Source of the DNA: a virus
Lineage: Duplodnaviria; Heunggongvirae; Uroviricota; Caudoviricetes
IMG/VR virus record: IMGVR_UViG_3300028534_000019
Span: 31,091-95,090 of that record
Length of the DNA stretch: 64,000 nt
Strand: one strand, 5' to 3'
Shown: positions 38,175 through 42,364 of the stretch, in pieces
Position numbering within the stretch: the first letter of the stretch is position 1
Layout: the number at the start of each line of letters is the position of its first letter
Notes under the pieces: model-generated
What the model was told of the DNA's origin: nothing
Databases searched by the model: none
The model's input: only the letters and a program-made list of their open reading frames with translations
Position numbers and translations under genes: made by a program

Positions 38175-39122
38175 ATGTTTGTTGTTAGAAAATTGCTTGA
38201 AGAAGCAAATGATAATTATTTTAAAAGACTTAATGATAATGAAATATCTAAAAATGATATAGAAATTTATGAAACTATTTTCCCTATTAGAAAATTAGAT
38301 GCTAGAAAATTAGATGATTTTGTTTCTAAAACTAACATTGATAATCTATTAATTAAAATTTCAAAACTAGATAATTCTTATATTAAAACTTTACTTAATG
38401 ATGTAATACTGATATTATCTAATGAAAAACCAAACTCAAGTCTAGCAGAAAATCTAAATCTTGTAAAAATGAGAATTGAAATAGATTTAGATGATGATGT
38501 TAAAAATTTTATATATGCTGAGGATATTATAGAAGTTTTAAAAACATTACCTAAAAGAACATTTATTGTAGGTGGTTTTGTTAGAGATTCAATAGCTAAT
38601 AGAAGTGCTAATGATATGGATTTTTGTACTGAAAATAGCTATGAAGATGTAAAAAAAGTTTTTGAAAAAAATAAAAACTTCTCTATTAAAGAAACAGGTA
38701 AACATTTTTCTGTTTTGATTGTTACAGATAAAAATAATCTTGAATCTTTTGAAATTGCTCAATTAAGAAAAGACAAAGATAATGGTGGTGCTGAAATAGG
38801 AACTATTATAGATGATGCTGAAAGAAGAGATTTTATGAATAGTGCTATTTACTTTGATATTAATTCTAAAGTATTAATTGACCCTCACGGTCAATCAATA
38901 GATGATAGTGTCAGAAATGTAATTAGATTTATTGGCAAACCTGAGGATAGAATAAAAGAAGACCCTCTAAGGGTTCTAAGATTTTATAGATTTATGGGTA
39001 GAGGTTGGGTAGCTGATTCAAAATCATTAAAAGCAGTGAGAACTAATTTTAGTTTAATGATGAATGAAACATCTCATAATAGAGTTATGAGTGAAATTGA
39101 AAAAATGGTAATGGGAGCATAA
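38175..39122 (+). CDS. cca: tRNA nucleotidyltransferase (CCA-adding enzyme / poly(A) polymerase head domain)
   Basis: FIVGGFVRDSIANRSANDMDFCT (GGxVRD...DxD), DAERRDFMNSAIYF (RRDFTxNA) and DPLRVLRFYRF. Carries an N-terminal extension of about 125 aa. Confidence 0.85.
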   Translation: MFVVRKLLEEANDNYFKRLNDNEISKNDIEIYETIFPIRKLDARKLDDFVSKTNIDNLLIKISKLDNSYIKTLLNDVILILSNEKPNSSLAENLNLVKMRIEIDLDDDVKNFIYAEDIIEVLKTLPKRTFIVGGFVRDSIANRSANDMDFCTENSYEDVKKVFEKNKNFSIKETGKHFSVLIVTDKNNLESFEIAQLRKDKDNGGAEIGTIIDDAERRDFMNSAIYFDINSKVLIDPHGQSIDDSVRNVIRFIGKPEDRIKEDPLRVLRFYRFMGRGWVADSKSLKAVRTNFSLMMNETSHNRVMSEIEKMVMGA

Positions 39123-39353
39123 ATGAATTGTACAGTTTTATATAAAGACAAAGATTATGATATAACAGTGAAAGGTTTTAAAAACATTACAGAAGCAGAG
39201 GATTTTATTCAAGATAAAACTGAAGATGATGAATGTTATGAACCGAGAATAATGGTTGATTATCCAATCATTCAACAACAAGAAGAAACAATAAAACTAT
39301 TAAGAAGTTTACTTGAATCTTTTGCTAATGATTTTAAAGTAAAAAGATTATAA
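39123..39353 (+). CDS. Hypothetical protein
   Basis: 76-codon ORF starting immediately after the cca stop. Confidence 0.5.
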   Translation: MNCTVLYKDKDYDITVKGFKNITEAEDFIQDKTEDDECYEPRIMVDYPIIQQQEETIKLLRSLLESFANDFKVKRL

Positions 39354-39377
39354 ATATCTTTGATATTTTATAAAAAA

Positions 39378-39399
39378 TTAAGTAAAGTTAGAGTATAAT
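39378..39399 (+). promoter_or_regulatory. Promoter candidate (TTAAGT-N10-TATAAT) for the tmRNA gene
   Basis: AAAATTAAGTAAAGTTAGAGTATAAT. The -10 element lies 52 nt upstream of the mature tmRNA 5' G, implying a processed leader. Confidence 0.55.
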
Positions 39400-39451
39400 T
39401 ACACATACAAAAAGGATATGTTGTTTTAATTATAAAAACTTTACTTACTAT

Positions 39452-39772
39452 GGGGATGATATGGTTTCGACTGGAAGTCATAGCACTAATGATACCTTTT
39501 AAAATTAAACGCAAACAACACAGATTACACTGGTAACACAGTGCTTTCAGCATAGTCTAAGGACTTGACTGAGGGGTTTTTAAGTTTTACCTTGCAACAG
39601 AAAAACTTATCCTTTTCGTTTTATATGGTTGTATGTCCTTAACATACATTAAAGTTTGTAATCTTTTCAAAATTACACATAAAAGTTAATAGTTCTTGGT
39701 TCTTTTAAAAACTAGAACATATCATTAGTGTGGATTTTTAGGACTCGGGTTCAATTCCCGACATCTCCACCA
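39452..39772 (+). ncRNA. ssrA: tmRNA (ssrA), full length, one-piece
   Basis: The 5' GGGGATG pairs with CATCTCC-ACCA at the 3' end, with a G3:U wobble (Ala identity). The T-arm is GGACTCGGGTTCAATTCCCGA. The tag frame GCA AAC AAC ACA GAT TAC ACT GGT AAC ACA GTG CTT TCA GCA TAG (39511-39555) encodes ANNTDYTGNTVLSA*. Confidence 0.9.
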
Positions 39773-39843
39773 ATCAAAAAATATTTTTAAAGTTTATAAT
39801 AAATAGATTTTTAAAATATTTTTAAAAATATAAAAGGATTATA

Positions 39844-41706
39844 ATGAGTCAAGATATTGTTTTAGGTATTGATTTAGGTACAACAATGAGTGTAATATCA
39901 TATTACGACCCCCACGAAAAAGCAGTCAAACTTATTAAAGATAAAGAACAAAAAGTTTTATTTCCATCAGTTGTTGCTTTGGTTGATGGTAAATGGGAAG
40001 TTGGTGAAAGGGCTTTAGAACAATATGAAGTAACTCCTGAATTAACAATAAGAAATATTAAAAGACTTATGGGAACACCATTTTATTCTGATGGATGTAA
40101 ACAAGCAAAAAATATAATCAGTTCAAAAGTTGTTAATATGGATGGTATGGCAGGTGTTGAGTTGATGGGTAAACAATATTCACCTGAAGAAATTTCCTCA
40201 ATCATTCTTAGTTTTTTAAAAGATACAGCAGAAAAACATTTTGAAAGATTGAAATTAGATTATAATATTAGTGGTGTTGTTATAACAGTTCCAGCATACT
40301 TCAATCATAACCAAAGAACAGCCACAAGGCGTGCTGGAGAGGTAGCTGGACTAAATGTATTAAGGATAGTTAATGAGCCGACAGCGGCTTCTCTTGCTTA
40401 TGGTTTACAAAATAAAGAAGATGGTAAAATAGTAGCAGTTGATTTAGGTGGTGGTACATTTGATGTATCAGTAATTGATATTTCTGATAGTACATATAAA
40501 GTTCTAAGTACAAATGGTAACTCTTATTTTGGTGGAGAAGACCTAAATAATAAAATTTTTAAAAATTTAGTAGATTTTATAAAGGCTAATATTGGAATAG
40601 ATATTACACTAAGTGATAGGTCACAAGCAATATTAAATGAAGAAATAGAGAGAGTAAAACAAGAACTTTCTTTTAATAAATCTTCTTACCTAAATGCTAA
40701 TGATATTTTTGAAAAAGACCCTTATAATTTTTCAGCTAAGATTACAAGAGAAGAATTAGAAGAAATTCTTGATTTTGGAGAAGTTAAAAAACACATAATT
40801 AAGGCTATTGAAGATGCTGATGTAAAATATGAAGAAATACAAGATGTTGTTTTAGTTGGTGGTTCAACAAGAATACCTATGTTGAAAAAAATAGTTTCTA
40901 AATTATTTGATGGTAGAGAACTTTATGATAAATTAAACCCTGATGAGGTAGTTTCAATAGGTGCTTCTATTCAGGGTGCTATTATTTCAGGTTATATTGA
41001 TGATATTTTGTTAATTGATGTTGCTTCTTTATCTTTGGGTATAAAATTAGATGACGAAACATTTTTACCAATTATTAAAAAAGGAACAGTATTACCAGCA
41101 GAATTTAATGATAATGTTACAACTTCTGAGAATGACCAAAAATTCTTAGTTTTTAATATAGCCCAAGGTGAAGCAGAAAAATTTAGTGATAATATTTTCT
41201 TAGGTAACTTTATTTTTGAGGGTTTTGATACCGGACCGGCAGGTTATCCAAACATAACTGTAACAATAAAACAAAATTTAGATGGTATTATAGAAGTATT
41301 AGTTAAAGATGAAAATTCTAAAGCAAAAGAAACTTATCTCATTGAGGGTGAATATAATATTTCACAAAGTAGAATACAAGAATTAACAGCTAAAAATGAA
41401 GAAAGTAATGAAGAAAACAAAGAAGAAAATGAAAGAAAAAGATGTTTATCGAGAATAAAATATAAATTGTTTGAAATTGAAAGATATGCTGAAAAATTTG
41501 ATTCTGAGAGAATGAGAGAATTATATAAAAATGGTTTGGATGCCATAAAAGAAGATAAACTAAAAGCAAGTGATTTATCAGTTATAGAAAATTATCTATC
41601 AAGTAGATATTTTAGTGTTATGGCTTCACACCAAAAAGAAATAGAAAACAAATTAGAAGAAAATGCTAGAAATTATGCTAAAAAACTTAGAAAAAAGGAA
41701 AAATAA
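39844..41706 (+). CDS. Second, divergent Hsp70-family chaperone (HscA/HscC-like paralogue)
   Basis: [58 protein letters not shown] and a substrate-binding domain LLIDVASLSLGI. The lid and C-terminus are unlike DnaK. Confidence 0.85.
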   Translation: MSQDIVLGIDLGTTMSVISYYDPHEKAVKLIKDKEQKVLFPSVVALVDGKWEVGERALEQYEVTPELTIRNIKRLMGTPFYSDGCKQAKNIISSKVVNMDGMAGVELMGKQYSPEEISSIILSFLKDTAEKHFERLKLDYNISGVVITVPAYFNHNQRTATRRAGEVAGLNVLRIVNEPTAASLAYGLQNKEDGKIVAVDLGGGTFDVSVIDISDSTYKVLSTNGNSYFGGEDLNNKIFKNLVDFIKANIGIDITLSDRSQAILNEEIERVKQELSFNKSSYLNANDIFEKDPYNFSAKITREELEEILDFGEVKKHIIKAIEDADVKYEEIQDVVLVGGSTRIPMLKKIVSKLFDGRELYDKLNPDEVVSIGASIQGAIISGYIDDILLIDVASLSLGIKLDDETFLPIIKKGTVLPAEFNDNVTTSENDQKFLVFNIAQGEAEKFSDNIFLGNFIFEGFDTGPAGYPNITVTIKQNLDGIIEVLVKDENSKAKETYLIEGEYNISQSRIQELTAKNEESNEENKEENERKRCLSRIKYKLFEIERYAEKFDSERMRELYKNGLDAIKEDKLKASDLSVIENYLSSRYFSVMASHQKEIENKLEENARNYAKKLRKKEK

Positions 41707-42164
41707 TGTTTTATGATAGAGATACAATGGATATGTTATTAGAAAGTTCTTATAGAACTTTCAGATATTTATTTAGACAAGGTAAAAAATTTAGTATAGT
41801 TATTTGGAATAATAATGATTGGAATCATCCATTACCACAAGAAACTATGAAAGCCCACCCTGAGCATATTTTGCTTGATATTAATAGCCAAGAAATAGAA
41901 AGAAGTGAAATCTTAGAAGATGGTTCTGTATTACTTAGATTAATTTTTGGTGAAACACATTATGAAAAAGTTATATTACCAAAAGATATTATAGCAATTT
42001 TAGATGGAAGTGGTAGAGCAATACATTCAAATAACTTTAAGGATGTAGCAAAAGAAGAATTACTTGATAGTGTATTTAGTTTAAATGATTTATATGAAAC
42101 TTTATTAGCATCAGGTGTAGAAGATGAAAATATTATAAAATCAATGGAAGCATTCGGATTATGA
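41706..42164 (+). CDS. Possible SspB-like adaptor (tentative)
   Basis: The start overlaps the Hsp70 stop by 1 nt. ...HILLDINSQEIERSEILEDGSVLLRLIFGETHYEKVILPKDIIAILDGSG... lines up with my memory of E. coli SspB ...IVLNIAPRAVGNLELANDEVRFNARFGGIPRQVSVPLAAVLAIYARENG.... Confidence 0.35.
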   Translation: MFYDRDTMDMLLESSYRTFRYLFRQGKKFSIVIWNNNDWNHPLPQETMKAHPEHILLDINSQEIERSEILEDGSVLLRLIFGETHYEKVILPKDIIAILDGSGRAIHSNNFKDVAKEELLDSVFSLNDLYETLLASGVEDENIIKSMEAFGL

Positions 42165-42364
42165 CAGATTATAGAAAGATTACAACAAAAACAACAAAAA
42201 GAAAATTAATTGAAACATATATGTCAAATAACAATATATTTGTAAATTCAGTTTTAACACAAATTTTTGAGAAAATTGATATTGGTTTATCAACAGGTTC
42301 TTGGAAAGTTAGAATTATTGATGAAGAATTAGAAATAATCCATATTATAGAAATAATTAAATAA
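42161..42364 (+). CDS. Hypothetical protein
   Basis: 67-codon ORF with a 4-nt ATGA overlap with the upstream gene. Confidence 0.45.
   Translation: MTDYRKITTKTTKRKLIETYMSNNNIFVNSVLTQIFEKIDIGLSTGSWKVRIIDEELEIIHIIEIIK

Follow-up and report, generated by a model that had tools for sequence, protein, structure and literature searches.

An SspB-fold protein next to tmRNA and Hsp70 genes in a T4-like phage of probable Campylobacterota hosts

The window analysed here is the 64,000-nucleotide (nt) stretch at positions 31,091 to 95,090 of the IMG/VR virus record IMGVR_UViG_3300028534_000019, which derives from a T4-like phage whose host is probably a member of the Campylobacterota. Within 4.2 kb of the window, one strand carries genes for a class-II nucleotidyltransferase, a one-piece transfer-messenger RNA (tmRNA, ssrA), a divergent Hsp70 paralogue (Hsp70b), a 152-amino-acid (aa) protein and a 67-aa open reading frame (ORF) product, orf67 (Table 1). 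A sequence-only reading of this region had aligned the 152-aa protein by eye to SspB and had proposed a phage system in which the addition of tags, their recognition and a dedicated Hsp70 are coupled. SspB (PF04386) is a textbook AAA+ protease adaptor, which acts as a dimer and serves ClpXP as an adaptor for ssrA-tagged proteins and RseA (structures 1OX9, 1OU9, 2QAZ, 2NYS and 8ET3). ARAGORN, Rfam, Pfam and translation recovered every listed feature, overlaps included, at the positions given for it. Our results further support an SspB fold for the 152-aa protein, and indicate that its gene belongs to a gene order conserved among related phages in which neither the tmRNA nor Hsp70b has a place.

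Fold and family of the 152-aa protein

Searches with the 152-aa protein against Pfam, PHROGs, NCBIfam, PADLOC, PDB sequences, GenBank phages (tblastn) and IMG/VR gave nothing useful, and a word-indexed protein search returned the protein itself only. By an exhaustive HMMER search over 1.84 billion representatives, 62 further matches were obtained, mostly 112-182 aa long and 24 of them at E <= 1e-10. The long repetitive proteins P0136 and P0165 in this list were spurious on inspection and were excluded, and the long multi-stretch match P0174 was also left out of the family. One family member from JGI, P0153, is named 'transcriptional antiterminator' by its source, a name that finds no support in this analysis. 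The family alignment consists of three parts, an N-terminal domain of ~110 aa with the motif WNNxDWDxxLP, a variable linker, and a C-terminal motif S-x3-F-x-K-N-N-P. UPF0738, the one sub-threshold Pfam match of the 152-aa protein, was dropped as a family assignment, the weak match (E 0.0047) being seen in one of 57 members only.

The AlphaFold2 (AF2) model of the 152-aa protein, built on the family alignment, has a mean predicted local distance difference test (pLDDT) score of 93.3 and a predicted template modelling (pTM) score of 0.74. In a Foldseek search of this model against the PDB, the top 19 hits were all SspB-family chains (E 2.4e-4 to 4.7e-3, probability 1.00), from E. coli, H. influenzae, Caulobacter and Agrobacterium (AGR_C_3712), and the next hit had E 0.18 and probability 0.08. 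The match covers the elements of the SspB substrate-binding domain, that is, an N-terminal helix and a beta core, at a sequence identity to SspB of 9-18%. Alignment of the family with hhalign gave P 9.3e-4 against single E. coli SspB and P 1.9e-4 (probability 47.5%) against a six-sequence SspB profile that included phage SspBs, and both alignments keep the register proposed by eye, with its LNI, F.ARFGG and AIY segments. The E. coli SspB sequence used here agrees with PDB chain 8et3_Y at 165 of 165 residues. Pfam SspB (PF04386) was matched by one of 57 family members (E 0.0071), and hmmsearch of the family profile against the PDB found no SspB. The Foldseek hits and the hhalign alignments support the SspB-fold call, and distant homology to SspB is likely.

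The C-terminal part sets the family apart from SspB. A ClpX-binding peptide of the form L[RTS]VVK closes the E. coli protein as well as the SspBs of phages pf16, RAY and FLC4-3B; in the Acinetobacter sequence the last residues are LRILD. The AF2 model of the relative P0135 has the same core, after which come a linker of low confidence (residues 121-139), two helices modelled with confidence (residues 140-167) that hold the conserved motif, and a short tail. As modelled, the layout of domain, linker and terminal element is SspB-like, with a docking element of a different kind.

Gene order in relatives and in the window

Relatives were collected through three locus look-ups and a metagenome scan with a 15-sequence sub-alignment (23 loci); their DNA covers ~10 kb on each side of the SspB-like gene. 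Among the sources searched, the family was present in phage-like metagenome contigs only; with the pattern used, a scan of 185,579 species genomes of bacteria and archaea returned no member, and IMG/VR held none. When the window proteins were compared with these loci by tblastn, the SspB-like gene was found directly after a metallophosphoesterase gene in ~20 independent loci, the phosphoesterase homologues being 38-66% identical and lying about 30-250 nt upstream. The conserved order runs from a DUF2201 gene through further genes to the metallophosphoesterase, the SspB-like gene and a homologue of the CCA-type nucleotidyltransferase, and then to MazG or dCMP deaminase; the nucleotidyltransferase homologue was seen in the four loci that reach far enough downstream (L014, L019, L024 and L029), 2.4-5.8 kb from the SspB-like gene.

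The same comparison found a homologue of Hsp70 in none of 26 related loci, and none of orf55, orf76 or orf67 in any of them. ARAGORN detected no tmRNA or tRNA in any related locus, and Rfam gave no match in 147 kb from the 12 longest. The block of orf55, nucleotidyltransferase, orf76, tmRNA and Hsp70b (38005-41706) sits between otherwise adjacent backbone genes in this phage alone. As far as gene order tells, the adjacency of tmRNA, Hsp70b and the SspB-like gene is a one-off rearrangement rather than a conserved module. The proposed coupling of tag addition, tag recognition and a dedicated Hsp70 fails on this point, since relatives show no linkage of the gene trio to ssrA, and it is weakened further by the missing canonical ClpX-binding tail and by the lack of an orf67 homologue in these loci. 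This negative result matters, as adjacency in a single genome had suggested an operon that at least 20 relatives show not to be conserved; the coupled reading currently rests on adjacency in one genome.

The overlaps within the window are themselves real. Hsp70b and the 152-aa gene overlap by TAATG and the 152-aa gene and orf67 by ATGA, and the Hsp70b/152-aa junction is present in three independent assemblies (the window contig, ENA locus L001 and Logan locus L002). However, of the 80 same-strand pairs of neighbouring ORFs in the window, 26 overlap or lie <=5 nt apart, so dense genome packing accounts for the adjacency of Hsp70b, the SspB-like gene and orf67 and for their translational coupling. 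The name 'island' does not hold for composition, a compositional island being ruled out by the uniform GC content of 0.22-0.30 over the whole window.

By their codon-usage scores, orf55, orf76 and orf67 seem to be real genes (Table 1); neither Pfam nor PHROG gave a family match for orf55 or orf76, and orf67 had no significant match in Pfam, PHROG or NCBIfam. Megablast of the region against phages gave no match. T4-type genes in the window include gp32, RNase H, a T4-type terminase, a neck protein, gp15, gp19-like tube proteins and T4 baseplate proteins. A scan of the window for sigma-70 promoters returned 55 sites against 58 expected, and the T4-late-promoter-like motif TATAAATA shows no overall enrichment (20 copies against 27 expected). 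Its plus-strand sites lie at 39349-39356, 9312, 10383, 11716, 14575, 42946, 47940, 49655 and 53948, mostly 24-50 nt upstream of start codons, and one is ~100 nt upstream of the tmRNA 5' end.

Several further features mark the neighbourhood of the SspB-like gene. Tandem SspB-like paralogues of 112 aa and 169 aa follow the metallophosphoesterase in L006 (5285-6173) and in L007 and L015 (169-1057). The metallophosphoesterase match falls into two pieces ~195-230 nt apart (query residues about 5-86 and 87-224) in L009 (655-1509), L018, L021 (9077-9937) and L023-L026, which could reflect an insertion, an intron or an extra domain. Genes resembling the anti-Pycsar protein Apyc1 (Lactamase_B) adjoin the SspB-like gene in L003 (4821-5498) and L006 (6175-6750 and 7827-8108), and the surroundings look like a variable zone holding accessory or counter-defence genes. 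Upstream, a MoxR-like AAA_5 ATPase and a DUF2201/VWA-like protein are encoded at 33465-36473 of the window; this pair is kept in the relatives L021, L024-L026 and L003, at identities of 32-49% and 42-47%, respectively.

Table 1 Features of the region and related genes elsewhere in the window
Feature	Position in window	Strand	Support
SmpB	16602..17051	+	Pfam PF01668, 132.2 bits, model positions 2-142 of 143
Canonical DnaK	18640..20490	+	Pfam HSP70, 766.8 bits
DnaJ-type co-chaperone (J domain and C-terminal domain)	20502..21305	+	PF00226, 85.8 bits; PF01556, 61.7 bits
Metallophosphoesterase	37321..38004	+	Pfam Metallophos_2 and Metallophos; PHROG 547
orf55, 55 aa, first gene of lineage-specific block	38005..38172	+	In-frame codon-usage score 0.56, against about -1.3 off frame
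Class-II tRNA nucleotidyltransferase / poly(A) polymerase family enzyme (CCA-type head and neck), 315 aa	38175..39122	+	PF01743; PHROG 2244
orf76, 76 aa	39123..39353	+	In-frame codon-usage score 0.585
One-piece tmRNA (ssrA)	39452..39772	+	ARAGORN; Rfam RF00023
Hsp70b, divergent full-length Hsp70 paralogue	39844..41706	+	Pfam HSP70 (PF00012), 471.6 bits
152-aa SspB-fold protein, core at residues about 5-108, then helical C-terminal region	41706..42164	+	
orf67, 67-aa ORFan	42161..42364	+	In-frame codon-usage score 0.47, against -0.9 off frame

tmRNA, Hsp70 and nucleotidyltransferase genes

The tmRNA gene is the sole tRNA-like gene detected by ARAGORN in the window, and encodes the tag ANNTDYTGNTVLSA followed by a stop. 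It scores 90.8 bits against RF00023 (gathering threshold 47) over model positions 1-374, without truncation. The RNA begins with GGGGAUG and ends with CAUCUCCACCA; its tRNA-Ala-like acceptor stem holds a G3.U70 pair, the 3' CCA is encoded in the genome, and the tag frame at 39511-39555 (GCA AAC AAC ACA GAU UAC ... GCA UAG) includes both resume and stop codons. Judged by these elements, the tmRNA looks functional. SmpB is the obligatory protein partner of tmRNA, and with a SmpB gene 22 kb from the tmRNA gene, the phage carries a complete tmRNA-SmpB pair.

For comparison with possible hosts, species genomes were scanned for the pattern NNTDYAP and the matches were passed to ARAGORN. Nineteen tmRNA genes with tags of the form (A/V)NNTDYAPAYA[KH][AV]A were recovered, all 19 from Campylobacterota (Helicobacter, Arcobacter/Halarcobacter, Sulfurovum, and unclassified Campylobacterales and Campylobacteraceae). 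Alignment of the phage tmRNA with these RNAs extends over the tRNA-like domain and the resume region as far as the ANNTDY codons, beyond which it diverges from them. Compared with the bacterial genes of L041, L045, L067, L083, L115 and L149, it is shorter (321 nt against 376-402 nt) and lacks ~29 nt near the 5' pseudoknot region. Correspondingly, the phage tag equals the Campylobacterota consensus ANNTDYAPAYAKAA in its first six residues only. It is chimeric: ANNTDY, the N-terminal half, is of the host type, and the C-terminal half, TGNTVLSA, is new, ending in LSA where the host tag ends in KAA. SspB of E. coli binds the N-terminal half of the tag there and ClpX reads its C-terminal residues, and degradation of proteins bearing DAS tags, in which the C-terminus is weakened, depends on SspB (PMC8138137). 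By analogy, which is no evidence in itself, the phage tag could be an adaptor-dependent degron like DAS.

Hsp70b was confirmed as divergent, as had been read from its sequence. Its Pfam HSP70 match is full-length (residues 6-562 on model positions 1-557 of 599), spanning the nucleotide-binding domain, linker, substrate-binding domain and lid, but it falls below every NCBIfam cut-off for DnaK or HscA (467.6 against 648 for the DnaK model NF001413; 386 against 708 for HscA). It is 40% identical to the phage's own canonical DnaK over 546 aligned residues and ~40% identical to bacterial DnaKs, including those of Campylobacterota, whereas the canonical phage DnaK is 66-74% identical to Campylobacterota DnaK. 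Hsp70b has no close relative in IMG/VR. Neither Pfam nor PHROG detected a J domain or a GrpE domain in the neighbours of Hsp70b, and DnaJ directly follows the canonical DnaK, not Hsp70b. By the indirect evidence of the NNTDYAP tags, the tmRNA alignment and the identity of the canonical DnaK, the host is probably a member of the Campylobacterota.

The nucleotidyltransferase had been read as a CCA-adding enzyme, which holds for its motifs and head domain and not for the whole enzyme. Motifs A, B and D of class-II enzymes are present in the translation (GGFVRD...DMD, RRDF and EDPLRVLR), the PolyA_pol head domain PF01743 matches residues 130-249 at 65.5 bits, and PHROG 2244 'tRNA nucleotidyltransferase' matches at E 1.7e-36. 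By contrast, the CCA-enzyme model NF009814 reaches 93.8 bits against a cut-off of 290; its match stops after the head and neck (model positions 4-206 of 396), short of the tRNA-binding body and tail domains, and PcnB models score similarly. An N-terminal extension of ~116-125 aa (window 38175-38550) is unrelated to CCA enzymes and has no family match; in three of four relatives it is also unmatched, the alignment running from residue 117-122 on, and in L029 the alignment starts at residue 66. The idea that a CCA enzyme is needed for maturation of this tmRNA is weakened, as CCA is already part of the tmRNA gene and the enzyme is retained in relatives that have no tmRNA close by.

Other genes of the window touch on the same functions. 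A ClpP-family protease (PF00574, 34.8 bits) is encoded at 13926-14552 on the plus strand, directly after the T4-type large terminase (12055-13872), and is probably a prohead protease rather than a partner of an adaptor. The window also encodes an RlaP-family nucleotidyltransferase (24448-25548), NADAR (18057-18569), YqeY (28443-28889), and SIR2 followed by a DUF488 protein (4884-6088). Together with tmRNA, SmpB and the CCA-type enzyme, these RNA-repair, ADP-ribose and NAD genes may point to upkeep of the translation apparatus or to counter-defence. Since SmpB, DnaK, DnaJ and the ClpP-family protease lie elsewhere in the window, the toolkit is scattered. We infer that tmRNA and SmpB, DnaK and DnaJ, Hsp70b and the nucleotidyltransferase make up a dispersed ribosome-rescue and proteostasis toolkit rather than one co-evolved operon, which would plausibly be useful if infection yields many truncated host mRNAs.

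Possible roles and relation to known systems

We consider it probable that this part of the T4-like phage genome is a variable segment, in which the 152-aa protein is a strongly diverged, phage-specific, adaptor-like backbone protein of the SspB type and the remaining genes belong to the scattered toolkit, not to an operon. The gene identities, the modelled fold, the family and the synteny described above are the ground for this explanation, from which adaptor activity, a docking partner and a cargo may be proposed. The SspB-like core would probably hold an extended peptide of a cargo protein, and the C-terminal two-helix module would dock on a host machine, most likely an AAA+ unfoldase such as ClpX. 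A candidate cargo is ANNTDY, the conserved half of the ssrA tag of Campylobacterota and a segment that the phage tag keeps. In the models, the window protein keeps the N-terminal helix and the beta core, and the tail of a relative with the full motif would form a flexible linker and the two-helix module.

Several observations weigh against this explanation. The window protein has no hit to PF04386 and so falls outside the family at the Pfam gathering threshold, and homology is weak at the sequence level (no Pfam hit, hhalign probability 47.5%). The canonical ClpX-binding XB tail L[RTS]VVK is absent from the 152-aa family, and the window protein itself ends in ...KSMEAFGL, before the K-N-N-P part of the family motif. 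Moreover, window positions 274-43989 yielded no gene for ClpX, Lon or GrpE, and in the relatives a tmRNA, SmpB or Hsp70 gene could sit beyond the stretches covered.

Among the rival explanations, the one we place highest, improbable as it is, takes the 152-aa protein for an SspB mimic. As a decoy or inhibitor, or by redirecting substrates of the host, such a mimic would occupy a host protease or substrate-binding site and thereby protect phage proteins or reprogramme regulated proteolysis of the host, as proposed for pf16 gp18 with RseA. Phage SspB homologues are indeed common without a phage tmRNA (78 phage records; pf16 has no ssrA, PMC5587285), members of the 152-aa family likewise occur in loci without tmRNA, and the altered C-terminal module could dock differently; yet no host target can be named for such a mimic, and an architecture of linker and docking module fits delivery as well as blockade. 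We rate as still less probable a dedicated module of the kind proposed at first, in which the phage tmRNA would add the tag, the SspB-like protein would recognize its N-terminal half, tagged chains would pass to Hsp70b or ClpXP, and the CCA enzyme would maintain the tmRNA 3' end. The parts lie in 4.2 kb on one strand, with overlaps joining Hsp70b, the SspB-like gene and orf67; the SspB fold was confirmed, and SmpB makes phage trans-translation complete. The tag likewise fits, as it keeps ANNTDY, the half that SspB binds in the E. coli tag, and has LSA in place of the host KAA in its replaced C-terminal half, while engineered DAS tags with a weakened degron make degradation SspB-dependent (PMC8138137). 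Several points, however, speak against such a module: ~20 relatives have the SspB-like gene and no Hsp70, tmRNA or orf67 in the stretches covered, the conserved neighbour of the SspB-like gene is a phosphoesterase, homologues of the CCA enzyme occur in relatives without a nearby tmRNA, the tmRNA encodes its own CCA, and gene overlap is commonplace in this genome.

Lowest in this ranking, and very unlikely in our view, is that an SspB-like fold has been reused outside proteolysis, for example for nucleic-acid binding or scaffolding by a small Sm/SH3-like barrel. An identity to SspB of only 9-18%, the absent XB motif and the phosphoesterase neighbour would suit such a use, but the layout of domain, linker and terminal module mirrors that of SspB, and hhalign places the family in the SspB register. 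With as little confidence, we mention natural adaptor-gated tagging, in which the phage tmRNA would write a chimeric tag that keeps ANNTDY and replaces the host …AKAA with …VLSA, and the SspB-fold protein would read it. By analogy with weakened tags, …VLSA would then be a poor autonomous degron, so that the phage adaptor would decide the fate of rescued chains, which could be passed to ClpXP via the new docking module or to the second Hsp70. Such a system would be a natural counterpart of the engineered DAS+4/SspB system.

If the 152-aa protein is indeed an adaptor, as we favour, such phages would import proteolysis adaptors into hosts that may lack them, and the docking module could reveal a new way to engage ClpX or another unfoldase; SspB is reported only from certain proteobacteria (PMC8138137). 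To the question why phages encode trans-translation, the literature offers only speculation (PMC9004378, PMC7162821), and a phage with tmRNA, SmpB, DnaK, DnaJ, a second Hsp70 and an SspB-fold protein is a concrete system in which to address it.

SspB in phages is itself not new. Although the arrangement seen in the window had been put forward as undescribed, tblastn with E. coli SspB finds homologues in 78 phage records. Such homologues are encoded by phiKZ-like and Ralstonia jumbo phages, and those of Pseudomonas phage pf16 (gp18, PMC5587285) and Erwinia phage RAY (gp039, an 'SspB-like ClpXP adaptor', PMC10299810) have been discussed. Fold matches of the 152-aa protein in BFVD also include proteins named 'stringent starvation protein B', and a literature search combining SspB, tmRNA and 'jumbo phage' found nothing. 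The 152-aa protein resembles the pf16/RAY-type proteins as an SspB-fold protein of a large lytic phage without a demonstrated link to a phage tmRNA. It differs from them in that they are recognizable by BLAST (30-53% identity to E. coli SspB) and carry an LRVVK-type tail, neither of which is true of the 152-aa family, and the latter occurs in a different phage clade, whose probable host phylum may lack SspB.

With bacterial SspB, the 152-aa family shares the succession of folded domain, flexible linker and conserved C-terminal element, together with the register of the LNI, F.ARFGG and AIY segments. In contrast, it has no Pfam hit, bears a two-helix S-x3-F-x-K-N-N-P module in place of the short L-R-V-V-K peptide, and has the motif WNNxDWDxxLP, which SspB lacks. 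Of phage genomes, 2.3% contain a tmRNA gene (PMC9004378), and in huge phages tmRNA and SmpB are found together (PMC7162821). Like these, the window phage has a complete-looking one-piece tmRNA and SmpB, but with a contig of ~100 kb it is not a huge phage, its tag is chimeric, and its RNA measures 321 nt against 376-402 nt in the host phylum. With the engineered DAS and DAS+4 tags (McGinness et al. 2006, reviewed in PMC8138137), the phage tag has in common that the adaptor-binding half is kept and the C-terminal ClpX degron is altered, a likeness of formal layout only. Compared with all these systems, what appears to be new here is, first, a divergent family with the SspB fold that sequence searches miss, whose C-terminal module differs and which occurs in T4-like phages probably infecting Campylobacterota; second, a chimeric tag; and third, the co-presence of tmRNA, SmpB, DnaK, DnaJ, a second Hsp70 and an SspB-fold protein in one contig of ~100 kb.

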